64,000 bases of DNA from Candidatus Velthaea sp. (GTDB taxonomy: Bacteria; Vulcanimicrobiota; Vulcanimicrobiia; Vulcanimicrobiales; Vulcanimicrobiaceae). The notes beneath the pieces were generated by a model. It was not told the origin of the DNA and ran no database searches. It saw only the letters and a program-made list of their open reading frames with translations. Made by a program: the position numbers and the translations under genes. This document shows, in pieces, positions 32,155 to 55,887 of the stretch (positions within the stretch are counted from its first letter, which is position 1; every line of letters begins with the position of its first letter). The DNA lies in assembly GCA_050012475.1 (NCBI GenBank), contig JBEKHC010000007.1:1-64000 (forward strand). Reading direction: 5' to 3'.

Positions 32155-32408
32155 TCGCCCAAAGCGACGCGACCGAGGTGGTCGAGGGAAACCACTATTT
32201 CCCCGTCGGGGCCATCAAGGGCGAGTTTTTTCGCCACAGCTCGACCCACAGCAACTGTCCGTGGAAAGGCGTCGCCAGCTACTACACGCTGGAAGTCGAT
32301 GGAAAAGCCAACCCCGACGCAGCGTGGTATTATCCCGACCCCAAACCCGCGGCGAAGAATATCGCCGGCCATATCGCGTTTTGGAAAGGCGTCGAGGTCA
32401 AGCCATAG
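32127..32408 (+). CDS. DUF427 family protein
   Basis: GAGGAG RBS. A.WNG.VIA.SD..VEGNHYFP, CPWKG.ASYY, AAWYYP.PK, IAFWKGV. Confidence 0.93.
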   Translation: MQAIWNGQVIAQSDATEVVEGNHYFPVGAIKGEFFRHSSTHSNCPWKGVASYYTLEVDGKANPDAAWYYPDPKPAAKNIAGHIAFWKGVEVKP

Positions 32409-33520
32409 AGCTCGAACGAGCTTATCTCGCGCGAGCGTATGAACTCGCGGCGCGTGCGATCGCCGACGCATCGCCGAATCCGCCGGTCGGTGCGGTCGTC
32501 GTCCGTGATGGCCGAACGTTGGGCGAGGGCTATCACCATCGCTGCGGCGAGCCGCACGCGGAAGTCGAAGCCTTGCTTGCCGCGCGCGCCGGCGGTGCCG
32601 ACGTTCGCGGCGCAACCCTGTACGTCTCGCTCGAGCCGTGCGACCATCACGGCCGGACCGGGCCTTGCACGCAGGCGATCCTCGCTGCCGGCATCGCGCG
32701 CGTCGTCGCCGGCACGCTCGATCCCAACGCGGTCGCGGGCGGCGGTGCCGCTCGTTTGCGCGCGGCAGGCGTCGCGGTCGACGTCGTCGACGATTCTGCG
32801 GCGCGTGCGCTCATCGAGCGCTTCGCCTTCGCAACCGCGCACGCGATCCCGTTCGTCACGCTCAAGATGGCGATGTCGCTCGACGGCGCGATCGCTCCCC
32901 GCCCCTGCGGCAACTACGCCGTGTCGGGCGCGCCCGCGCGCGAGCTCGTTCGCGATTTGCGCTATGAGTACGACGCGGTGATGGTCGGAGCGGGCACGAT
33001 TCGCGCCGACGACGCGCAGCTGACGGTCCGCCCGCACCGCACCCGGCGCAAACCGTACGTGCGCGTCGTCGTGTGCGAAAACGACGCCGTGCCGGCGCAC
33101 AGCCGCGTGTTCGCCGCCCCGCCCGACGCCCCGGCCGGTGCTTACGCGCCGACGATCGTGCTGGCTCCGGCGGGGATTCGCGAACGTTTCACGGCGCTCG
33201 AGACGATCGCGGACGTCGTGTACGTCGGGCCGTCCGCTGCGCGCACGCTCGATCTCGCCGCGGCGCTGCGGGCGCTGCGCGAACGCGACCTGTGCAGCGT
33301 TCTGTGTGAAGGCGGTCCGACGCTGGGGGGCCGGCTGCTCGAAGCGCACCTGGTCGCGCGCATCGTGTGGTTCATCGCGCCGCGCTTTCTTCAAACACCG
33401 CAGGCGGTGCCGGTGCTCGCCGGCGCCGATCTCACGCGCGCGTTCGACGGGTGGCGCTTCGATCGGGTCGAACGCGTCGGCAACGACATGCTAGTGAGTG
33501 CTCGAGTCGATCGTGTTTAG
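32405..33520 (+). CDS. ribD: bifunctional riboflavin deaminase/reductase; start uncertain (ATA 32405 or TTG 32381)
   Basis: PNPPVGAV, HAE, LYVSLEPC.H.GRTGPC, K.A.SLDG, VG.GT..DD, EGG..L. Confidence 0.93.
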   Translation: MELERAYLARAYELAARAIADASPNPPVGAVVVRDGRTLGEGYHHRCGEPHAEVEALLAARAGGADVRGATLYVSLEPCDHHGRTGPCTQAILAAGIARVVAGTLDPNAVAGGGAARLRAAGVAVDVVDDSAARALIERFAFATAHAIPFVTLKMAMSLDGAIAPRPCGNYAVSGAPARELVRDLRYEYDAVMVGAGTIRADDAQLTVRPHRTRRKPYVRVVVCENDAVPAHSRVFAAPPDAPAGAYAPTIVLAPAGIRERFTALETIADVVYVGPSAARTLDLAAALRALRERDLCSVLCEGGPTLGGRLLEAHLVARIVWFIAPRFLQTPQAVPVLAGADLTRAFDGWRFDRVERVGNDMLVSARVDRV

Positions 33521-34157
33521 CGGGTTAATCGCGTATCTCGGCCACGTTCGGCGGGTCGACGGCGATCGTCGCACCGGAATGCGGCTGGTGATCGACGCGC
33601 CCGAAGCGACGGCCGAGGGCGTCGCGATCAAAGATTCCATCGCAGTGAACGGCGTATGTCTGACTGCGGTTGCCGTCGACGGCGTGGCGGTCAGCTTCGA
33701 CGTCGTGCCCGAAACCGTCCATCGCACGACGTTCGGCACGCTGCGCGCCGGCGATCCGGTCAACCTCGAACTCTCGCTGCGGCTCGGCGACCGGCTCGGC
33801 GGCCACTTCGTTTACGGCCACATCGACGCCACCGCGCAGATTCTGGACAAACGGCCCGAAGGGCAGGGCGACCGGCTCACGATCGCCACGCCGGCCGCGC
33901 TCGACGCCATGATCGTCGAGAAGGGCTATCTCGCCGTCGACGGGGTGAGCCTGACGGTCGCGTCGGTGGCACCGGGCCGGTTTACGATCGCGCTCATCCC
34001 CGAGACCGCGAAGCGCACGACCCTGGGAACCAAAAGCGTCGGCGGCCAGGTCAACCTAGAAATCGACCCGATCGCACGCTATGCGCAAGCCGCGATCGCG
34101 GCCTACGCGCAAAACGGCGCGACGAACGACGAACTCGCTTGGGCGTATGAGATTTAG
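33513..34157 (+). CDS. ribE: riboflavin synthase
   Basis: MFSGLI, SIAVNGVCLT, VNLE, RLGGH.V.GHID, KG..AVDGVSLTV, IPET, VNLE.D. Confidence 0.96.
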   Translation: MFSGLIAYLGHVRRVDGDRRTGMRLVIDAPEATAEGVAIKDSIAVNGVCLTAVAVDGVAVSFDVVPETVHRTTFGTLRAGDPVNLELSLRLGDRLGGHFVYGHIDATAQILDKRPEGQGDRLTIATPAALDAMIVEKGYLAVDGVSLTVASVAPGRFTIALIPETAKRTTLGTKSVGGQVNLEIDPIARYAQAAIAAYAQNGATNDELAWAYEI

Positions 34158-34171
34158 TCGGGCGGCGCGCC

Positions 34172-34648
34172 GTGAACGACGGTGAACTGCGCCCGGCCGC
34201 GGCTACGGGCATCCGCGTCCGCGATCGGGTCAGGTGGAGTGACATCGACATGATGGGCGTCATGTACTTCGGACGCTACGTGCGCTTTGCGGAAATGGCC
34301 GAGGCGGAATTTTTCCGCGCGATCGGCTACTCGTATGACGAGTTGCATGCGCAGTACGCGATCTGGCTGGCACGGATCCATCTCGACATCGATTTCCGCT
34401 CACCAGCCCGGCTCGATGATGAAGTGGAATGCCGCGCCCAACTCATCAAAGTCGGCGCGTCGTCGATGCACTTCAATTTTCCGGTCGAGCGCGCGAGCGA
34501 CGGCACCCGGCTCGCCGACATCGGCTTGGTGATCGCTTCGCTCGACGCCGTCACGTTGAAGACCACGCGCACACCCGCCGCCTTGCGCGATCGACTGCGG
34601 CCGCACGTCGCAGCGCACGCGCGGCAAGAAGCTGCGGGTTCGCCGTGA
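34172..34648 (+). CDS. hotdog-fold acyl-CoA thioesterase (YbgC/4HBT family)
   Basis: RVRWSDIDMMGVMYFGRY..E, F.SPARLDD. Confidence 0.88.
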   Translation: MNDGELRPAAATGIRVRDRVRWSDIDMMGVMYFGRYVRFAEMAEAEFFRAIGYSYDELHAQYAIWLARIHLDIDFRSPARLDDEVECRAQLIKVGASSMHFNFPVERASDGTRLADIGLVIASLDAVTLKTTRTPAALRDRLRPHVAAHARQEAAGSP

Positions 34649-39420: not shown

Positions 39421-39644
39421 GGTGCCCTCGGCTCCGCTCGGTACACCGGGCGGCTCGGGGGTAGCCCGAACACGGCGGATCGACGAAGTCGATCCCCTCG
39501 ATCCGGCAACAAGTCGGGGGCCGCAGAACAGCACTGCGGCCCCCAGCTTCCCGGCTCTGCGCTTCAAGCGCCGCGCCGGAGCTGCAGAACGGCTCAGCGG
39601 CCCCCAGCTTTCCGGCTCTGCGCTTGAAGTGCCGCGCCGGAGCT
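39421..39644. repeat. intergenic palindrome array including a 61-bp tandem repeat x2 (REP/BIME-like)
   Basis: GGATCGAC-GAA-GTCGATCC (39477-39495) and GGGGGCCGCAG..CTGCGGCCCCC (39516-39544). Units 39523-39583 and 39584-39644 each carry an AGCT.CCGGC..GCCGGAGCT stem. Confidence 0.85.
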
Positions 39645-40932
39645 AGAGCGCGTTCAGCAGTCGCTGAGGGCTTGCGGCGGCGAACAGCCGGACGAACTCA
39701 TCGACCGCAATCCGGGCAAAGTCGCGCGTATCGAGATTGACGTCGAGTTCGACGACGGCGCCGCCGTTGTCGATTTTTTCTTTGAGACGGTGCGCGAATG
39801 CGGCGTCCGCCGCCGGATCGAACATCGGCCGGCCTTCCCGGTTGAGCGACGACCAGCCCTTGCGCGGGATCAAGAAGGTGAACGGCCCTTTGGCTTGGTT
39901 GAGGCGCTGGGCGATCGTATCGGCGGCGAAGGTCAATTCGTCGGCGCTCGCGCGCACCTGCACGCGCAGCGCGTTCTGTTCGACGCGGTTCTTGCGCGCG
40001 GACCCGGTGCGGTTGTCGCGCGAACCGCCGTAGCTGAGGATGTCGAGCCCGCACGGCGCGAGCACGGCCGGTATCCCGCGGCAGACGGCGCCCGCCAACC
40101 GGCCCGGGCCGGGGTCGCGGTTCCCCATGAAGAGATGCTCGATGACGCCGCCGGTGCAGAGATCGAGCACGCCGGCAAAGGCGCCGTCGCGGATCATCTC
40201 TTCCATCGCCCGATCGCCTTTGCCGTCGGCCTCGAACACGACCGGGAGGAAGCCTTCCTCTTCGAGCATGCCGAGCGCGGCTTTCACCGCGACGGCGGCG
40301 CAGCCGGACGACGATACGGCGACAACCGGCTTGTCGAAAACGTAGTCGTTGCCGCGCGTCGTATCGACCATCCCGCAGATCGCGCCGACGGCGTTGGTAA
40401 GTTGTGTCTTGAGCAGCGGGTTCATCTTGCCGATGTCGAGCACGGTGTGGTGCAACGTGATGTCGCGCGTCCCGACGAACGCCGCGATCGCTGCCGGATC
40501 GGCCGCGAGCGGCGACGCCATCAGCTTGGGCAGACCGAACGGCAACGTCTTCATGATGCTCGTGGCGACGTGCGACGCGATGGCGCCGCCGATGCCCATG
40601 ATGCCGTGGACGCGGCCCGCGCGAAGCAGGTCGTGGACGATCGCCGCGGCGCCCGCGATCTGGTTTTCGATCGCTCGCGTCCGATCGGAACGGTAGAAGA
40701 CGCGGACTTTTTCGACCGGCACGCCGCCGCGCGCCGCGACCTGTTCGCAGGTGATGTCGCCGGCAAACGGCGGCGCCGCCTCCAGGCTGAAATCCAGCAG
40801 CAGCGGCACGTGTCCGCGGCGGCGGATGAGATCTTTGACTAGCCCGACATTCTCGCTTTGCGCATCGAGGCTGCAAGCGACGACGATGCCCTTCTTGGGC
40901 GTGTCGGTTCCCAATGTCCAGGCGGACCGCAT
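39643..40932 (-). CDS. Tm-1-like ATP-binding domain protein (UPF0261), divergent
   Basis: LPFGLPKLM.S, VGT.DIT, NAVGAI.GM, G.GDRAME, GVLDL, P.V..P.GLD, P.KGWS, FDP.AD. The N-terminal TLDTK motif is altered to SLDAQ. Start uncertain. Confidence 0.88.
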   Translation of the reverse strand: MRSAWTLGTDTPKKGIVVACSLDAQSENVGLVKDLIRRRGHVPLLLDFSLEAAPPFAGDITCEQVAARGGVPVEKVRVFYRSDRTRAIENQIAGAAAIVHDLLRAGRVHGIMGIGGAIASHVATSIMKTLPFGLPKLMASPLAADPAAIAAFVGTRDITLHHTVLDIGKMNPLLKTQLTNAVGAICGMVDTTRGNDYVFDKPVVAVSSSGCAAVAVKAALGMLEEEGFLPVVFEADGKGDRAMEEMIRDGAFAGVLDLCTGGVIEHLFMGNRDPGPGRLAGAVCRGIPAVLAPCGLDILSYGGSRDNRTGSARKNRVEQNALRVQVRASADELTFAADTIAQRLNQAKGPFTFLIPRKGWSSLNREGRPMFDPAADAAFAHRLKEKIDNGGAVVELDVNLDTRDFARIAVDEFVRLFAAASPQRLLNAL

Positions 40933-41493
40933 GCGCATCTACGTCCGAACCGCGGCTCGGGCCGCGAGCTCGCTGCCTTTCCGATCCGCGCAGTTGATCG
41001 CGCCGATCTCGCGATCGTGTGGAGCGAACGACTGCCGATTCGTCATCAGGTATACGGCCTTTGCAATGTCGACGGTACGCTTGAGGGGGAAACACGCATC
41101 CGCAAAGCGCACGTTCTGCGCTCGACCGACGGTTGAAAGATGAAACCGTCGTTTAATTCTTGTGAAAGAACTTTACTTCAAAAATACGTAGTAGCGCAAG
41201 ATGTAACGCAAACTATTTTCATGTTACCCAGTAAGACAAAAGTTAGTCTTCCGACAATTAACACACGAAGTGCGGGCCGGAGCCTGCAATTCGGCATTAC
41301 ACCTACCGTAACCGCAGAATTCCTCGAGTCTAAATGCGACGTAAGTGGTAACTTTCGTTAGCGGCCATCGAAGACATTTGTCATGTCGGTCGACCGGGTT
41401 GGAGCTGCCGTTCCGCTGCGGGGCGGCGTTTTGGTGTGCGCTGTTGTGCGCCCAGTGGTGTCGTGCCGGCGACGGTCGCGAAACGAAAGCACG

Positions 41494-41910
41494 ATGAAAC
41501 GTTCGACGTCGACAACGGCCGGATTGCCGCGATGCATTTCCGTTCAAACCGCCGGATCGACGTGGCGGGTGCACGCTGAAGCGATGTGCTTCGGCGACGT
41601 TCTTGTCGCGATTTGGGGCGGCGAAAAACTACACATCGGGGCAGTTGCTGCTGCGTCGTGGCCAGTTGAACCGACCCGCGACGTCGAGTGCGACGTCGTC
41701 GGTACTGACGTCTATCGGGCACAAAGAGGACGTCGTGGTAAAGCCGGTAGCGGAAGCGCTGTGCGCCGGCTCGGCACCAATGTCGTCGTTACCTCCGGCC
41801 TCCATTGGGATGACCTCCCAGAACGCGGAATCGCCGCCATTCGCGCGAGCTGCACGGAACTCGTCGACTTGGTCGCGCTCGCGCTAACCAGAGACCCGCC
41901 AGCAGGCTAG
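41494..41910 (+). pseudogene. LpdD-like (prenylated flavin chaperone family) gene with two compensating frameshifts
   Basis: VLVAIWGGEKLHIGAVA, then shifted frame SATSSVLTSIGHKEDVVVKPVAEALC, then back to RLGTNVVVTSGLHWDDL. Confidence 0.7.
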
Positions 41911-42249
41911 TTTACCGCCACACGTCCCACCAGACGCCGACCGGATGACCCAGGCAGCGAGCGAATGGCGTGCCGGGAGCCGACGTTTCCATCGGGTAGC
42001 AAAGTAGGCCACTGCGACAGCGAGGAAGTCGTGCCGGAAGTCAACGTCCCACTGGGGGAGTAACGGATGACCGCGGTAGCGAGCGAGCCATGCGCAAAGT
42101 CGCCGACCTTAAATCGGGCAGCAAGCCGATGACCGAGACGTACCGGACTAATGGTGCCGCAAACCGACCTTCCAGCGGGCAGCAAATCAACCATCGTGGC
42201 CATCAACCGATCGGCCGAAGACGGCCTCAATCGGCGATGAAGGTCCGCC

Positions 42250-42286
42250 TTGACATTTGTTAACTCGGGCTTGTAGGCTTGAAGCC
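42250..42286 (+). promoter_or_regulatory. sigma70-type promoter, apparently leaderless, with a dyad over the -35
   Basis: TTGACA (42250-42255), 18 nt, TAGGCT (42274-42279), 7 nt, GTG 42287. TTGACA-TT-TGTTAA is an imperfect inverted repeat. Confidence 0.7.
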
Positions 42287-43711
42287 GTGGAGAATTTTTC
42301 AGCCGAGCTGTGCGCGGCAATGAGCGAGGCCGGCGTTTCCGCCGCCGAGCTTGCGCAGCGCTCGGGATTGACCGAGGGCGCGATCTCCTACCTCCGGTCG
42401 GGCCGGCGCGAGCCCTCATTCCGCTCGATCCAGGCGCTCAATGCGGCGCTGCCCGAACTTGCGGCGCGCTTCGATACGGAACGGAGAAAAATGGACTCGA
42501 TCGAGTCGGCCATCGCCGACATCAAAGCCGGCAAGATGGTGGTCGTGCTCGACGATGAGGAGCGGGAGAACGAAGGCGACCTGGTGATGGCCGCCGAGCG
42601 CGTCACGAGCGAAGCGATCAACTTCATGCGCAAGGAAGCGGGCGGCCTGATCTGCGTCGCCTTGACGGGCGAGCGCCTCGACCGCCTGCAGATTCCGCCG
42701 ATGGTGAACGACAACACCACGCCTTTGGGCACGGCGTTTACCGTCTCGGTCGAAGCGCGCGGCCGGGTCACCACCGGCATCTCGGCCCAAGACCGCTCGA
42801 ACACGATTCTGGCCCTGATCGATCCGGCGGCGACGCCGGCCGACTTTCTCCGCCCAGGCCACACGTTTCCGCTGCGCTCGCGCGACGGCGGCGTGCTCGT
42901 CCGGGCCGGACAAACGGAAGCATCGGTCGACCTCGCGCGGCTGGCCGGCCTCAAGCCCGCGGGCGTCATCTGCGAAATCATGGATGATGACGGCTCGATG
43001 ATGCGCTTGCCGCATTTGCGCGAATACGCGAAGAAACACGATTTGCGGCTGGTCACCGTCAAAGATCTCATCGCGTACCGGATGCGTCACGAGAAGCTCG
43101 TGCAGCGGATCGCCGAGTTCAATTTGCCGACGCCCTTCGGCTTGTTTCGCGGCTTTGCGTACGAATCGAAAGTCGACGACGTCGCGCACGTTGCGCTGGT
43201 CATGGGTCACATCGGCGACGGCAAAGACACGCTGGTGCGCGTCCATTCGGAATGCCTGACCGGCGACGCACTGCATTCGATTCGCTGCGACTGCGGCGCG
43301 CAGCGCGATGCAGCGATGGAAGCGATCGCGCGCGAAGGCCGCGGCGTCTTTCTCTACCTGCACCAGGAAGGCCGCGGCATCGGCCTCGCCAACAAGCTGC
43401 GCGCCTACGCGCTCCAAGATGCCGGCGCCGATACGGTCGAAGCGAACGTTGCCCTGGGGCTGCCGGCCGACAAACGCGATTACGGCATCGGTTCGCAGAT
43501 TCTCGTCGATCTGGGTGTCCGCGAGATGCGCCTGCTCACCAACAACCCCACGAAGATCGCCGGACTCGAAGGTTTCGGGCTGACGCTGGCCGGACGGGTG
43601 CCGATTCAGACCAACCCCACCGTGCACAACTCGCACTATCTCGACACCAAGCGCGACAAGATGGGCCACTTGTTTGCCGGCGCGCCGGCGACCGTGCCGG
43701 TCGTGCCGTGA
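42287..43711 (+). CDS. ribBA: XRE-family HTH fused in frame to bifunctional DHBP synthase/GTP cyclohydrolase II
   Basis: N-terminal GVSAAELAQRSGLTEGAISYLRSGRREPSFRSIQAL. Then DDEERENEGDL, FTVS, TTGISA.DR, RPGH.FPL, RVHSECLTGD..SIRCDCG, QEGRGIGL.NK. Internal GGAG plus ATG at 42491. Confidence 0.95.
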   Translation: MENFSAELCAAMSEAGVSAAELAQRSGLTEGAISYLRSGRREPSFRSIQALNAALPELAARFDTERRKMDSIESAIADIKAGKMVVVLDDEERENEGDLVMAAERVTSEAINFMRKEAGGLICVALTGERLDRLQIPPMVNDNTTPLGTAFTVSVEARGRVTTGISAQDRSNTILALIDPAATPADFLRPGHTFPLRSRDGGVLVRAGQTEASVDLARLAGLKPAGVICEIMDDDGSMMRLPHLREYAKKHDLRLVTVKDLIAYRMRHEKLVQRIAEFNLPTPFGLFRGFAYESKVDDVAHVALVMGHIGDGKDTLVRVHSECLTGDALHSIRCDCGAQRDAAMEAIAREGRGVFLYLHQEGRGIGLANKLRAYALQDAGADTVEANVALGLPADKRDYGIGSQILVDLGVREMRLLTNNPTKIAGLEGFGLTLAGRVPIQTNPTVHNSHYLDTKRDKMGHLFAGAPATVPVVP

Positions 43712-44205
43712 AGAAGACCGCCGCGGCAACCTCCTATCCCGACGCCAAAGGCAAACGTTTCGCGATCGTTTCGGCCCGGTTTTACGGCGATCTCGCCGAC
43801 TGGCTCGAAGACGGGGCGCGCCGCGGACTGCGCGACTGCGGGGTGAGCGAAAGCGACATCGACTTCGTTGCCGTGCCGGGCTGCTTCGAGATTCCGCTCG
43901 TTGCGCGGAACCTCATCGTCGGCGGCGAGTACGACGGGATCGTCGCGCTGGGCGTCGTCATTCGCGGCGACACGCCGCACTTCGACTATGTCGCGGGTGA
44001 ATGCGCGCGCGGGATCATGAACGTGCAGCTTACCACCGGCGTGCCGATCGGCTTCGGCATTCTGACGACCGAAAATCTCGCGCAAGCTGAGGAGCGTGCC
44101 GATCCGCAGCGGCTCGATAAAGGGCACGAAGCGGCGGTTGCGGCGGCCAGCGTCGCCGTCATCGAACCGTCCAAGCGCGACAAGCAGCGCGTCGGATTCC
44201 GCTAA
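43708..44205 (+). CDS. ribH: 6,7-dimethyl-8-ribityllumazine synthase
   Basis: GTGA overlap. AIV.ARF, VPG.FEIP, LG.VIRG.TPHFDYV, P..FG.LT..QA.ERA, KG.EAA. Confidence 0.96.
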   Translation: MKKTAAATSYPDAKGKRFAIVSARFYGDLADWLEDGARRGLRDCGVSESDIDFVAVPGCFEIPLVARNLIVGGEYDGIVALGVVIRGDTPHFDYVAGECARGIMNVQLTTGVPIGFGILTTENLAQAEERADPQRLDKGHEAAVAAASVAVIEPSKRDKQRVGFR

Positions 44206-46360: not shown

Positions 46361-47764
46361 ATGAACGAGACAACGTACGCCTCGCCGTTTTCATGGCGCT
46401 ACGCGCGCATGGAACTCCGCGAGCTTTTTTCCGAGCGCGAACGGCGCAAGCTCTGGCGCGCGGTGTGGATCGCGCTGGCCGAGTCGCAGCTGCGCAGCGG
46501 TCTCGTATCGCAAGCCGAACTCGACGATCTGCGCGCGCACGCCGGCGACATCGATCTCGCGGCGGCGCTCGCCATCGAGCAGGAGATCGGCCACGATCTG
46601 ATGGCCGAGATTCGCGTTTTCGCGAAGCAGGCCACCGTCGGCGGCGGCAAGATCCATCTCGGCGCCACGTCGATGGATATCGAAGATACGGTCGAGATCT
46701 ATCGCATGCGCCTCGCGCTTCATCAAATCGTGGGTTCGATCGATGCGTTGCTCGTCGCGTTTGCGGCCCAGATCGACGCGCATGCCGACACGGTGTGCAT
46801 GGGCTACACCCATCTCCAACCGGCCGAACCGACGACGATCGGTTACCGGCTGGCCGTCTACGCGCAAGACGTGCTCATCGATCGTGCGGCGCTGCTCTTC
46901 AGCCTCGAACAACTGACCGCCAAAGGCATTCGCGGCGCGGTCGGCACGTCGGCCTCGTATTCCCGGCTGCTCGCGGGCACCGGACGTTCTGCGGCAGATC
47001 AGGAAAACGATGTGCTCGGCGCGTTCGGTTTGAGCGCGCGCGATGTCGCAACGCAAACGTACCCGCGCAAACTCGATTTTCTCTTGCTCTCGCAGCTCGC
47101 GGGCCTGGGTGCGTCGCTGTCCAAATTCGCCGCCGACGTGCGGATCCTGGGTTCAGCGGGTTTCGGCGAAGTCTTCGAGCCTTTCGGCGCCAAGCAGGTC
47201 GGCAGTTCGGCGATGCCGTTCAAGCGCAATCCGGTCATGTCGGAGCGCATCGACTCGCTTGCGCGGCTGCTGCCCGGGTATGCCGACGTCGCCTGGCAGA
47301 ACGCGGCGACGAACTACTTGGAACGGACGCTCGACGACAGCGCGAACCGCCGCACGATCTTGCCCGAAGCCTTGCTGTGCAGCGACGAACTGTTATCGCT
47401 CGCGCGCAAGATCGTGACCGGCTTGCGCGTCGACGAACGCCGGATCGCCGAGAATCTGCGCACCTACGGACCGTTCGCGGGGACCGAAGCGGTCCTCATG
47501 GAAGCGGCGAAGGCCGGTGCGGATCGTCAGGAAATGCACGAAGCCATTCGCGAGAGCGCGATGACGGCGTACGCCGCGCTCGCGCGCGGCGAAAGCAATC
47601 CGCTCGCCCGGCTGATCGCCGACGACGAGCGCATCGCTCGTTACGTCGACCCGGCCGAGATCCGGGTGCAACTCGATCCCACCGGGCACACCGGCGATGC
47701 CGCGCAGCGCGCGCGCCGGCTGGCTGCCCGCATCCGCGAAACGCTGGAGATTACCGGTGAATAA
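46361..47764 (+). CDS. purB: adenylosuccinate lyase
   Basis: Y.SP.SWRY, HDLMA, IHLGATS.D, GYTH.QPA, G.RGAVGT.AS, QVGSSAMPFKRNP..SE, LERTLDDSA.RR. Confidence 0.96.
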   Translation: MNETTYASPFSWRYARMELRELFSERERRKLWRAVWIALAESQLRSGLVSQAELDDLRAHAGDIDLAAALAIEQEIGHDLMAEIRVFAKQATVGGGKIHLGATSMDIEDTVEIYRMRLALHQIVGSIDALLVAFAAQIDAHADTVCMGYTHLQPAEPTTIGYRLAVYAQDVLIDRAALLFSLEQLTAKGIRGAVGTSASYSRLLAGTGRSAADQENDVLGAFGLSARDVATQTYPRKLDFLLLSQLAGLGASLSKFAADVRILGSAGFGEVFEPFGAKQVGSSAMPFKRNPVMSERIDSLARLLPGYADVAWQNAATNYLERTLDDSANRRTILPEALLCSDELLSLARKIVTGLRVDERRIAENLRTYGPFAGTEAVLMEAAKAGADRQEMHEAIRESAMTAYAALARGESNPLARLIADDERIARYVDPAEIRVQLDPTGHTGDAAQRARRLAARIRETLEITGE

Positions 47765-48980
47765 GGGCCATGAAATAACGCGCGGCAAGACCAAGGTTTT
47801 GCACGAATACCCCGGTCAGCCCGACGTGCTCGTCGTGTCGCAGCTCGACGCGATCAGCGCGCGCGACGGCGAACGGCGCGACACGATCGAAGGCAAGGGC
47901 CGGATCGCGGCCAAAACGACGGCGCGCGTCTTCCGGCTGCTCAATCTGTGCGGCCTGCCGACGCATTATCTGAGCGGCGGCGAAGACGACGACGACAACG
48001 AGATGCTCGTGCGGCGCGCGCAGATGATCCCGCTCGAAGTCGTCGTGCGCGGCGTCGCCGCCGGCTCGCTGGTCAAACGAAAACCGGGCATCGCCCGCGG
48101 CGCCTTGCTCGTGCCGCGCCTGATCGAGTTTTTCATCAAGGACGACGCCAACCACGATCCGCTCATCGAAGCCGACGAGATCGTCGGCCGCGGGCTGGCG
48201 TCGCCGCAAGAACTCGGCACGATGAGCGAACTCGCGCGCATGACGTACGAAATTCTCGCGCATGCGTGGCGCCGGCGCGATACGCTGCTGGTCGACCTCA
48301 AGATCGAATTCGGCCGCATCGCCAGCGGCGAAGGCAAAGGCTCGCTGGTCATCGCCGACGTCATCGACAACGATTCATGGCGCGTCTGGCCGCAGGGGCG
48401 CGAAGAGCTGATGCTCGACAAACAGATTTACCGCAATCTCGAAACCGTGACGCCGGCCGATCTGGAGTTGCTGCACGACAATTACGAACGCGTCGCCGAG
48501 ATCGTCGGGACGTTTCCCCAAATGCGCCCGGGGATGATCGCGATCCTCATCGACGGCCCGCCGTTTGCCGAACTGGGCAACAACGTCGCACGCGCCGTCG
48601 GCCAATTCGGTTTGGCCTCGGTTCGGCACATCGTATCGGTCGAACGCACGCCGGGATACGTGCTCCAACTCGTCGCGCAGCTCGACGCGACCTTTCCCAA
48701 GATGGTGCTGATCGCGGTGGGGGCAACCAGCAGCACGCTGGCGGGGATGCTCGACAACGTGAGCGCGAATCCCGTGCTGCGGGTTGACGCGGCAGCGCTC
48801 GATCTGGACGGCGTCGCGTTCAGTTGCGCGAAGGCGCTGGGGCTCGAGGACACCGTCGTCTATGGGCGCGTCATGCTCATGCAGGCCAACGTGCGGTCGT
48901 CGGTGATGCAGGCCGACGCGCAGCTTCAAGCCCAGCAGCAAGCGCAGCAGACACCGGCACCGGGCGCCACTCTTGCTTGA
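47757..48980 (+). CDS. purC: SAICAR synthetase fused to a degenerate PurE-like domain (PAICS-like architecture)
   Basis: GKTK, MIPLE.V.R..A.GS, E.F.KDDANHDP, LVD.KIEFG, ADVIDNDSWR.WP and DKQ.YR. The C-terminal PurE-like fold has SVERTP. Confidence 0.9.
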   Translation: MNKGHEITRGKTKVLHEYPGQPDVLVVSQLDAISARDGERRDTIEGKGRIAAKTTARVFRLLNLCGLPTHYLSGGEDDDDNEMLVRRAQMIPLEVVVRGVAAGSLVKRKPGIARGALLVPRLIEFFIKDDANHDPLIEADEIVGRGLASPQELGTMSELARMTYEILAHAWRRRDTLLVDLKIEFGRIASGEGKGSLVIADVIDNDSWRVWPQGREELMLDKQIYRNLETVTPADLELLHDNYERVAEIVGTFPQMRPGMIAILIDGPPFAELGNNVARAVGQFGLASVRHIVSVERTPGYVLQLVAQLDATFPKMVLIAVGATSSTLAGMLDNVSANPVLRVDAAALDLDGVAFSCAKALGLEDTVVYGRVMLMQANVRSSVMQADAQLQAQQQAQQTPAPGATLA

Positions 48981-52559: not shown

Positions 52560-53636
52560 ATGAGCATGATGGTGGAGACGCAACGCGATCAGCTAGGCGA
52601 GGACGCCGAAGCGCGGCAATTCTACACGATCGCTACACTGGGGTCGCACTCCGCCCTGCAGATCCTCAAAGGCGCGCACGACGAGGGCTTCCGCACGCTG
52701 GCGATCGCGACGCGTGACACCGAGCGTTTGTATCGAAGCTTCGCCTTCGTCGACGAAGTCATCGTGATCGCTCAGTACTCCGACTTCATCAAGCTCGTGC
52801 CCGATCTGGAGCGGCGCAAGATCATCGTCGTTCCGCACGGTTCGTTCGTCGCTTATCTGTCGCTCGACGATCATAAGAAGATGCGCATTCCGTACTTCGG
52901 CAACAAGGCGGTGCTCGATTGGGAAGCCAGCCGCGAACTGCAGCGTCAGTGGCTGACGCGCGCCGGTCTGCGCGTACCGCGTCAGTTCCGCACCGGCGCC
53001 GAAATCGATCGCCCTGTGATCGTCAAGCTCTACGGCGCGCAAGGCGGCAAGGGGTACATGTTCCTGCGCGACGCGCTGGATTTTGAAGAACGCGCCAGCT
53101 TGCTCGCCCGGCAGAATTATATTCTGCAAGAGTACATCATTGGCGTGCCGCTCTACATTCACTATTTTTATTCGCCGCTGACCGGCCGGCTCGAGATCAT
53201 GTCGATGGACCGGCGCTACGAGACCAACGTCGATTCGCTGGGGCGCATCCCGTCGCGTGCGCAAGAGAGCATGGACATCGACCCGTCGTATGTCGTGGTC
53301 GGCAACTCACCGCTGAGCCTGCGCGAATCGATGTTGGCCGAAGCGTATCGGATGGGTGAGGACCTGGTGCGCGTCAGCCAGGAAATCTGCGGTCCCAAAG
53401 GGCTGTTCGGCGCATTCTGCATCGAAACGATCATCACGCCGGACGCCCAGTTCTACATCATGGAAGTTTCGGCGCGCATCGTCGCGGGTACCAATTTGTT
53501 CATTGACGGTTCGCCGTATTCGTATCTCAATTACAGCGAGCCGATGTCGACCGGCCGCCGCATCGCGCGCGAAATCAAAAACGCTTTGCTCACCAATTCG
53601 CTGAGTGCCGTGCTGGATGACTCGAGCGTTCTTTGA
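52560..53636 (+). CDS. purP: archaeal-type formate-dependent AICAR transformylase (FAICAR synthetase, ATP-grasp)
   Basis: IATLGSHSALQIL.GA.DEGF.T, PHGSFVAY, GA.GGKGY, QEY..G, YFYSPL, DRRYE.N.D, VVGN.P..LRES.L, G.FC.E, E.SARIVAGTN, MSTGRRIAREIK. Confidence 0.92.
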   Translation: MSMMVETQRDQLGEDAEARQFYTIATLGSHSALQILKGAHDEGFRTLAIATRDTERLYRSFAFVDEVIVIAQYSDFIKLVPDLERRKIIVVPHGSFVAYLSLDDHKKMRIPYFGNKAVLDWEASRELQRQWLTRAGLRVPRQFRTGAEIDRPVIVKLYGAQGGKGYMFLRDALDFEERASLLARQNYILQEYIIGVPLYIHYFYSPLTGRLEIMSMDRRYETNVDSLGRIPSRAQESMDIDPSYVVVGNSPLSLRESMLAEAYRMGEDLVRVSQEICGPKGLFGAFCIETIITPDAQFYIMEVSARIVAGTNLFIDGSPYSYLNYSEPMSTGRRIAREIKNALLTNSLSAVLDDSSVL

Positions 53637-54747: not shown

Positions 54748-55887
54748 ATGACCGCCGCCTTCGACGTTCGTGCTGCGCTCGCGACCTACGAGCCGGCGGC
54801 GCTGACGCTGTGCTCGATCGGCAGCCACTCGGCGCTCGAAGTCGCCGCCGGCGCGCGCGCCTGCGGTCTGCGCAATCTCATCGTTACCGAGAGCGGCCGC
54901 GAGCGCACGTACACCGAGCACTATTTTCGCAAGCCCGCTCCGCCGCGCGGCTGCGTCGATGCGGTCTTGGCGCTGGCGAAGTTCAGCGACGTGCTCGATC
55001 CGGGCGTTCAAGACCGGCTGCTGGCGCAGAACGTGCTCTTCGTGGCGAACCGTTCGTTCGAGGTGTATTTGCGCCAACGCTACACGTACCCCGAGATCGA
55101 ACGCGGGATGCGCGTGCCGTTCTTCGGCTCGCGCACGCTGCTGCGCGCCGAAGAGCGCGACGAGGCCGACAACCAGTATGCGCTGCTCGAGCGCGCCGGG
55201 GTCCGCTATCCCAAACAATTTGCCCACGCCCGCGACATCGACCGGCTGTGCATCGTCAAGGCGCCCCACGCGAAGGTCTCATTCGAACGCGCGTTTTTCC
55301 TGGCGCGTTCGAGCGCGGATTACGAACGGCAGTGCGCGCTGTTGCTGGCCGACGGCATGGTCGATGAAACCGGCTTGCGCGGGGCGGTGATCGAGGAGTT
55401 CGCGCTCGGGCCGTCGGTCAATTTGAATTTCTTCTATTCGCCGATGCTGGGTGAACTCGAACTCATGGGCACGGACACGCGCCGTCAAACCAACCTCGAG
55501 GGGCTCAAGAATCTGCCGTTCGCACAAGCGCAGGCGCTCGCCGACGAGCCGGTGCGTTTGGAAGAAGCCGGACATATCTCGGCGACGCTGACCGAGTCGA
55601 TGCTGGAAAAAGCCTTCGCGATGGGCGAACGGTTCGTGCGCGCGACGCAGGCGAAGGGCCGGCGCGGCATCATCGGCCCGTTCGCGCTGCAATGCATCAT
55701 CGTCGCGGGCCCGCCCAAGGACTTCATCGTCTACGACGTCTCGCTGCGCATCCCGGGCTCGCCCGGCACGCGCTTCACCCCCTATTCGTCGTACCGGTGG
55801 GGCCGCGACGTTTCGGTCGGCGAACGCATCGCGATGGAAGTGGTCTGGGCGCGCGACGCCGGCCGGCTCGCGGATATCTTGACCTAA
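54748..55887 (+). CDS. purP: second PurP-family (DUF1246/DUF1297) ATP-grasp paralog
   Basis: SIGSHSALEV..GA, NRSF.VY, FG.R.LLR.EER, DIDR..IVK, FERAFF, IEEF..G..NLNFFYSP, D.RRQTN..G, GH...T..ES.LEK, GIIGPFALQ, DVS.RIPGSPG, GERIA.E. Confidence 0.88.
   Translation: MTAAFDVRAALATYEPAALTLCSIGSHSALEVAAGARACGLRNLIVTESGRERTYTEHYFRKPAPPRGCVDAVLALAKFSDVLDPGVQDRLLAQNVLFVANRSFEVYLRQRYTYPEIERGMRVPFFGSRTLLRAEERDEADNQYALLERAGVRYPKQFAHARDIDRLCIVKAPHAKVSFERAFFLARSSADYERQCALLLADGMVDETGLRGAVIEEFALGPSVNLNFFYSPMLGELELMGTDTRRQTNLEGLKNLPFAQAQALADEPVRLEEAGHISATLTESMLEKAFAMGERFVRATQAKGRRGIIGPFALQCIIVAGPPKDFIVYDVSLRIPGSPGTRFTPYSSYRWGRDVSVGERIAMEVVWARDAGRLADILT

Follow-up and report, generated by a model that had tools for sequence, protein, structure and literature searches.

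A RibBA enzyme of flavin synthesis with an N-terminal helix-turn-helix (HTH) domain is encoded in the window, the whole stretch of 64,000 nucleotides analysed from Candidatus Velthaea sp. Judged from sequence comparison, this HTH-RibBA protein is quite probably an autogenous repressor-enzyme (trigger enzyme) controlling ribBA and ribH. Since a DNA-binding head is joined to the enzyme and a conserved palindrome lies on its own promoter, the fusion most likely switches off its own gene. Autorepression had been proposed in a sequence-only reading of the window and is supported as the likely function by the selected HTH, the dyad conserved at the own promoter and the co-occurrence of head and palindrome. 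In the proposed mechanism, the enzyme domains would supply the dimerisation, two heads would bind the palindrome and block RNA polymerase, and the protein would thereby limit transcription of ribBA-ribH, i.e. of the two entry steps of flavin synthesis and of lumazine synthase. A ligand read through RibB, either a flavin product or the occupancy of the active site, may gate the DNA binding; we consider such gating and a plain feedback on protein concentration about equally probable.

A helix-turn-helix head on RibBA

The features of the locus are collected in Table 1. As the sequence-only reading had described, the HTH runs without a stop into a complete RibBA: one frame from GTG 42287 to TGA 43711 encodes 474 aa, with 68 codons preceding ATG 42491, and matches three Pfam domains (HTH_3, residues 14-55; DHBP_synthase, 73-264; GTP_cyclohydro2, 274-439). 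HTH_3 exceeded its curated cutoff of 23 with the head alone (29.2 bits) as well as within the whole protein (24.8 bits), and the protein passed the cutoffs of NCBIfam PRK09311 and TIGR00505. The RibB residues R93, E94, D98, H192, R206, T210 and E230, which we take to be the catalytic residues of DHBP synthase, and, in RibA, the zinc cysteines C323, C334 and C336 with the catalytic Arg/Tyr pair R397 and Y399 are kept in 94 of 94 full-length fusions. By its conserved residues, the enzyme portion of the window protein is an intact RibBA. The genes ribBA, ribH, ribD and ribE are each present in a single copy in the genome.

Table 1. Positions of the features in the window, with the basis or context of each assignment
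Feature	Position	Strand	Remarks
Palindromic operator candidate cTTGACA-TT-TGTTAAc	42249..42264	.	14-bp core 42250-42263, overlaps -35 box
-35 hexamer TTGACA	42250..42255	+	Left half of dyad
-10 hexamer TAGGCT	42274..42279	+	18-nt spacer; 7 nt before GTG; predicted leaderless transcript
XRE/Cro-type HTH domain	42287..42460	+	Residues 1-58; HTH_3, PHROG repressor families, AlphaFold helices, dN/dS
Recognition helix TEGAISYLR	about 42371-42397	+	Within HTH domain
Variable linker with internal GGAG (42483-42486)	42461..42490	+	Sequence comparison
Internal ATG at usual RibBA start	42491..42493	+	Confined to some lineages
DHBP synthase (RibB) domain	42503..43078	+	Pfam; expected catalytic residues conserved
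GTP cyclohydrolase II (RibA) domain	43106..43603	+	Pfam; zinc cysteines C323/C334/C336 in 94/94
ribH (lumazine synthase)	43708..44205	+	Start overlaps ribBA stop (GTGA); directly downstream in relatives too
ribD (start uncertain) and ribE	32330..34157	+	Upstream half of ancestral rib operon; no operator site

An AlphaFold model predicts five helices in the head (residues 4-15, 19-26, 30-38, 45-54 and 56-66), with block pLDDT values of 75-93 for residues 1-60 and low confidence in the linker (63-67); the enzyme part is closest to RibA2 of M. tuberculosis (PDB 4I14). Among solved structures, none had one chain matching the HTH and RibB parts together. The complex prediction for two HTH copies (residues 1-66) scored 0.01 and counts neither for nor against a dimer of heads. 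One metatranscriptome contig of 300 nt is identical to 42304-42603 with zero differences and spans the HTH-RibB junction; it may be DNA, and the material, contigs only from two runs of one study, carries no transcript start.

Within the window's order, an order of soil bacteria, the HTH was detected in 195 of 209 genomes, namely in 192 of 206 from the window's family (f1) and in 3 of 3 from a second family (f2). The sister family f3 gave 0 of 22 and a further 69 genomes 1 weak match; this head-only search used one query and can miss diverged heads. With query residues 1-120, all three domains were present in nearly all of the best 120 of 1582 matches, and the relatives with names are Vulcanimicrobiota. 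In f3 (17 loci from 19 genomes) ribBA is head-less and follows ribE directly in 14 loci, e.g. in the gene order comF-ribD-ribE-ribBA-ribH. As the head-less ribBA of f3 mostly follows ribE directly, the ancestor of the order most likely gained an XRE/Cro head, together with a leaderless promoter, by insertion at the ribE-ribBA junction, with the head fused in-frame. Twelve positions distinguish the fusion enzymes from the f3 enzymes, a difference confounded with ancestry. Stand-alone relatives of the Vulcanimicrobiota head were seen as contig fragments only, with no close donor.

Among distinct loci, which are related so that the counts do not represent independent events, 94 of 100 encode the full-length fusion; the rest are two contig ends and four frameshifts inside RibB, none at the junction. 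Two findings had been named beforehand as speaking against a functional fusion, a separate HTH ORF in relatives and the loss of purifying selection on the HTH. No separate HTH ORF was found at the junction in the relatives. In 38 disjoint pairs, with synonymous sites partly saturated, dN/dS was 0.14 for the HTH (0.051 within its residues 27-44) and 0.36 for the linker, with values of 0.061 in RibB and 0.069 in RibA. The recognition region of the HTH is, by these rates, under purifying selection similar to that on the enzyme domains. The architecture of the trigger-enzyme class, a DNA-binding domain on an intact metabolic enzyme with both parts selected, is on this comparative evidence present in HTH-RibBA.

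Promoter, palindrome and insertion sequences

FMN riboswitches are considered in reviews the main regulation of bacterial flavin synthesis. The earlier claim that the fusion promoter lacks one held: RF00050 was not found in the window, in any of 61 relatives or in any of 151 genomes of the phylum, in a search whose control detected the riboswitch in 7 of 14 cases. A replacement of the riboswitch by the fusion is not established, since RF00050 was likewise not found in fusion-free lineages.

The promoter TTGACA-18-TAGGCT, ending 7 nt before the GTG and with half of a dyad as its -35 box, was recovered exactly as first read; it is missing (42250-42279) from the output of a generic promoter scan. 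The dyad of the window is the sole exact match to TT[GAT]ACA-NN-TGT[CTA]AA in the genome of 5.36 Mb, with 0 matches to the reversed control pattern, and across genomes the exact pattern occurs mostly in one copy. With an operator matrix made from the sites of 29 relatives it ranked as the top site genome-wide (25.6 vs 21.5 for the next). The runner-up (G000:C6:33647) is intergenic, downstream of an acyl-CoA dehydrogenase-like gene. A genome-wide search with the matrix revealed no regulon, and the other hits, as listed, were not at flavin genes.

Conservation of a TTRACA-N2-TGTYAA-type dyad upstream of orthologs, for which a check had been suggested, was found throughout: TTGACA-N2-TGTNAA lies over the -35 box in 100 of 100 fusion loci, each above the control maximum. 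The 70 held-out loci (80 loci minus 8 duplicates and minus 2 without upstream DNA) had a best promoter-window score of at least 11.4, and 68 of them reached 13, while 4384 control windows, drawn from the very loci scored, had a maximum of 9.8. Upstream of the HTH-less ribBA of f3 the dyad was absent in 17 of 17 cases (best score 0.6). For sigma-70 the right half of the dyad, situated within the promoter spacer, is dispensable. This half-site has G10 in 100 of 100 loci and A13 and A14 in 99 of 100 each, and the three bases together occur in only 4 of 132 promoter-like sites of the window's genome. A TAnnnT -10 box at 16-18 nt spacing was present in 67 of 100 loci, for 58 of the 67 at 6-7 nt from the start, and an SD-like motif preceded the fusion start in only 7 of 100. 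Fourteen of the 100 loci, mostly of one clade, have an extra operator copy about 29 bp upstream. A covariation of HTH residue 42 with operator bases 6/9 (13/21 vs 4/73) was discarded, as it comprises only 2 independent pairs from about one clade. Unpublished genomes contributed 3 of the 100 loci (L011 in G032, L012 in G024, L028 in G031) and 3 of the 29 matrix sites; the unpublished L295 (G022), L296 (G032) and L036 (G048) were inspected for additional dyads, and the tallies include their genomes. No conclusion depends solely on unpublished genomes.

The motif is not unique to HTH-RibBA, since similar TTGACA-N2-TGTCAA dyads occur, in fusion-free genomes or away from the fusion, at ArsR-like arsenic operon promoters of f3 (L033, L035) and at a Fur/PerR-like gene (L042, G007). 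These sites would agree with a different regulator, of CRP/FNR-like or ArsR-like type, binding the dyad in trans while the fused HTH serves something else; the dyad presumably also resembles the PrfA box. Such a regulator is very unlikely: a global regulator needs many sites and the genomes mostly have one, the site comes and goes with the HTH, two extra sites (in G004 and G023) are insertion-sequence junction copies of the ribBA operator, and other fusions have different palindromes matching their own heads. Sites over the -35 or -10 box of sigma-70 promoters block the polymerase, and the site lies over the -35 box here and over the -10 box in the alpha family described below. This position argues against an activation of its own promoter by the fusion, a highly improbable role for which the 18-nt spacer and the weak -10 box of the window could be adduced, together with the activation proposed for the archaeal RbkR (PMC5397151).

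Insertion elements recur at the palindrome. Among 27 genomes with a match, at least 6 have an IS1595 transposase (NF033547, over cutoff) beside the fusion; the window's genome contains no such transposase. In one locus (L253) a copy of the operator's 8-bp centre stands at each IS1595 end, and the outer bases are supplied by the element ends; since the outer operator bases are rebuilt in this way, operator and -35 box survive the insertion. The elements inserted at the operator centre form a subclade (L253:1420-3600, L120:1440-3400, L241, L242, L256, L091), and both tandem insertions and leftover ends are frequent. The stretch from ribE and the thioesterase gene to the promoter is an insertion hotspot. 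With a loose pattern that had no chance control, IS-like ends abutted the dyad in 24 of 100 loci. The exact insertion and these abutting ends would be compatible with a palindrome that is a mere transposon target, or else a back-to-back promoter, beside an HTH without DNA binding. We regard this as extremely improbable, since the dyad is equally well kept in the 76 loci without IS ends, a reverse-strand -10 box accompanies it in just 1 of 100 loci and the recognition region of the HTH is as constrained as the active sites. IS1595 rebuilding the operator is a clean case of harmless targeted insertion beside an essential gene. The palindrome is preferably read as the operator at which the fusion would repress itself.

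Probable extent of the regulated unit

An internal GGAG-N5-ATG had been taken as the normal RibBA start and as the source of a second isoform. The ATG at 42491 is present, but the spacing to the GGAG is N4. An ATG or GTG at the RibB start was found in 18 of 94 full-length orthologs, in 12 of 94 together with an RBS-like motif, and most orthologs have a Phe in this position. As a general feature, two isoforms were not borne out; they are possible in the window's genus only, where a head-less enzyme may be made from the internal start. The gene ribH is likely the second gene of the regulated unit. The same-strand run onward from the fusion exists as it was read (ribH-mtnA-holA-purB-purC and further), and in the window's genome ribH and mtnA are about 50 nt apart, without a listed terminator between them. 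Among 80 loci the ribH-mtnA gap is below 100 nt in 16 and at least 300 nt in 59, and a general coupling of flavin and purine supply finds no support in these distances. Between ribBA and the genes ribD and ribE there are now the new promoter and other genes spanning about 8 kb; a check for the dyad had been suggested for ribD and ribE too, and there was no strong site near either in the flanks scanned. In view of the wide ribH-mtnA gaps and of this lack of a strong site, the conserved unit is ribBA-ribH.

Two isoforms integral to the mechanism, combined with a flavin-purine coupling through one long operon, would be in line with the GGAG-N4-ATG, which the window's genus and some of its neighbours retain, with a similar internal ATG in Neisseria-type fusions and with the short gap, lacking a listed terminator, downstream of ribH in the window. 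The combination is unlikely, given an internal start that is absent in 76 of 94 orthologs and the spacing of ribH and mtnA in most loci.

Several neighbouring genes were recorded. A small zinc-ribbon gene (CxxC-x-CxxC) recurs downstream of ribH in 49 of 80 loci, often before mtnA (e.g. in L140 at about +3508 from the fusion start). A thioesterase-family gene (window 34172-34648) follows ribE in many fusion-bearing relatives and in none of the f3 loci read. The variable stretch before the promoter holds a UPF0261 gene (39643-40938, minus strand) and a PAC_bac chaperone-like gene (41383-41910). In the purine cluster there are two PurP-like genes (52560-53636 and 54748-55887; PRK13278 models below cutoff), and the PurC at 47751-48980 bears a degenerate PurE-like domain at its C-terminus. 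PurP is a formate-dependent AICAR ligase, mainly archaeal; RibB releases formate, and a link between the two is speculative.

Other HTH-RibB fusions and known systems

The proposed search for the fusion architecture, a profile search of 1.84 billion representatives, brought up distant HTH-RibB proteins in Hyphomicrobiales and Neisseria and, with weaker matches, in Novosphingobium and Dehalococcoidia. In Hyphomicrobiales (the alphaproteobacterial or alpha family; Aestuariivirga litoralis, Nordella and a Beijerinckiaceae bin; L161-L216) a Cro-like head with the helix TQGRVSQ is placed on RibBX. The motif TTAGC-N3-GCTAA (at most 2 mismatches), which like that of Neisseria was defined only after viewing the sequences, was present in 44 of 50 distinct loci with the fusion, where it precedes the ATG by about 23 nt and covers the -10 box of an apparently leaderless promoter. 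Three loci (L192, L194, L201) differ in having the palindrome immediately upstream of the -35 box. Of 100 Vulcanimicrobiota promoters, 1 had the alpha motif; in alpha promoters the Vulcanimicrobiota matrix reached no more than 5.0. Five alpha loci, probably of one or two clades, have Pro for Gln in the helix and T for A at the outer base of the operator. Stand-alone Cro genes sharing the alpha helix carry a similar site (L217, L221).

The Neisseria fusion, seen in N. gonorrhoeae (L271) and a related locus (L284), joins RibBX in frame to a head that resembles phage repressors (PHROG, E 2e-7). Both loci have a pair of TTRCY-N4-RGYAA sites, one at about -102 and the other at about -62. This motif was upstream of 5 of 5 phage repressor homologs and absent at a head-less RibB locus. 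The N. gonorrhoeae sequence (NZ_CP119142.1, L271:1360-2805) extends ribBX by about 82 codons, with an internal ATG at the usual start, and an FMN riboswitch was not found in NZ_CP119142.1. Novosphingobium is represented by two records with a weak HTH match, one locus having a 6-4-6 palindrome; on a plasmid of Novosphingobium sp. ES2-1 (L281:250-1616) a 424-aa RibBX has a weak N-terminal HTH and a palindrome upstream. A viral scan gave no match to the Novosphingobium-type fusion. Dehalococcoidia contributed one partial HTH-RibB protein. With 0-1 zinc cysteines in the C-terminal domain, the fusions of the alpha family, of Neisseria and of Novosphingobium are of the RibBX type.

In a RibB tree with 13 named references, the Vulcanimicrobiota fusions nest with the head-less f3 enzymes (98/93), the alpha fusions with Sinorhizobium, Bradyrhizobium and Methylobacterium, and the Neisseria fusions with Aeromonas. 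A single clade of Vulcanimicrobiota and alpha fusions was rejected with these 13 references (p-AU 1e-48, LG+G4); in a sparser tree without outside references a single origin of the two was not rejected (p-AU 0.68). At least three fusion origins are supported by this phylogeny, and there may be as many as five. RibB is the one domain common to all independent fusions and is the riboswitch-controlled step in E. coli (accessible part of PMC5397151), which suggests that gating passes through RibB. Tentatively, and with not quite even chances, RibB may be a recurrent platform on which riboswitch-less bacteria repeatedly captured phage repressors with their operators, RibB or RibX gating the DNA binding. 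This would cover Vulcanimicrobiota, Hyphomicrobiales and Neisseria, and probably Novosphingobium and Dehalococcoidia. If true, a protein-based regulation of vitamin B2 synthesis is widespread and hidden under plain enzyme annotations; the repeated domestication of phage repressor-operator pairs on one enzyme may also be relevant to the regulatory role of RibBX, which lacks an explanation so far. With its predicted operators, the fusion offers a testable answer to how flavin synthesis is regulated without riboswitches in one whole order, and cultured organisms are covered too (Aestuariivirga litoralis, Nordella, Novosphingobium, Neisseria).

In the open-access papers searched, HTH-RibB fusions were not found described, and the passages retrieved from three reviews (PMC13028884, PMC12542839, PMC13151069) contain no mention of a helix-turn-helix or DNA binding. 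The archaeal RbkR joins a winged HTH to a riboflavin kinase and is a proposed activator with a multi-gene regulon (Rodionova et al. 2017, PMC5397151, accessible part). RbkR thus carries the enzyme at the end of the pathway, whereas HTH-RibBA is bacterial, carries the enzyme at its start and has an XRE/Cro HTH, with one promoter and a site in repressor position; Pfam found no riboflavin kinase domain in the window protein. In Wolbachia, the protein regulators wBmxR1 and wBmxR2 bind a ribA promoter (PMC3518464, accessible part), and a regulator at a rib promoter is likewise predicted here; those two are, however, separate trans-acting proteins, reported as activators and tied to type IV secretion, not enzyme fusions. 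RibBX (PDB 6MNZ) lacks the zinc cysteines which the window protein, in contrast to the RibBX-type fusions, keeps; the RibBX passages retrieved (PMC10012899, bioRxiv 10.1101/2025.05.05.652280) do not describe a DNA-binding domain.

The fusion family has the HTH type, the short palindromic operators at the own promoter and the tandem operators in common with phage Cro/CI, and for the alpha and Neisseria heads both the helix and the operator motif recur in phage repressors that stand alone; unlike Cro/CI, the head of HTH-RibBA is domesticated onto a housekeeping enzyme. In this it resembles BirA, NadR and PutA, where a DNA-binding domain on an active enzyme acts as repressor (PMC5397151, accessible part). 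These have other enzyme partners and a ligand control that has been shown, whereas in HTH-RibBA a ligand may gate the binding, and the RibB fusion, unlike them, seems to have arisen several times. HTH-RibBA is apparently an undescribed variant of this class, and with it an enzyme of pathway entry would join the short list of enzyme-repressors.
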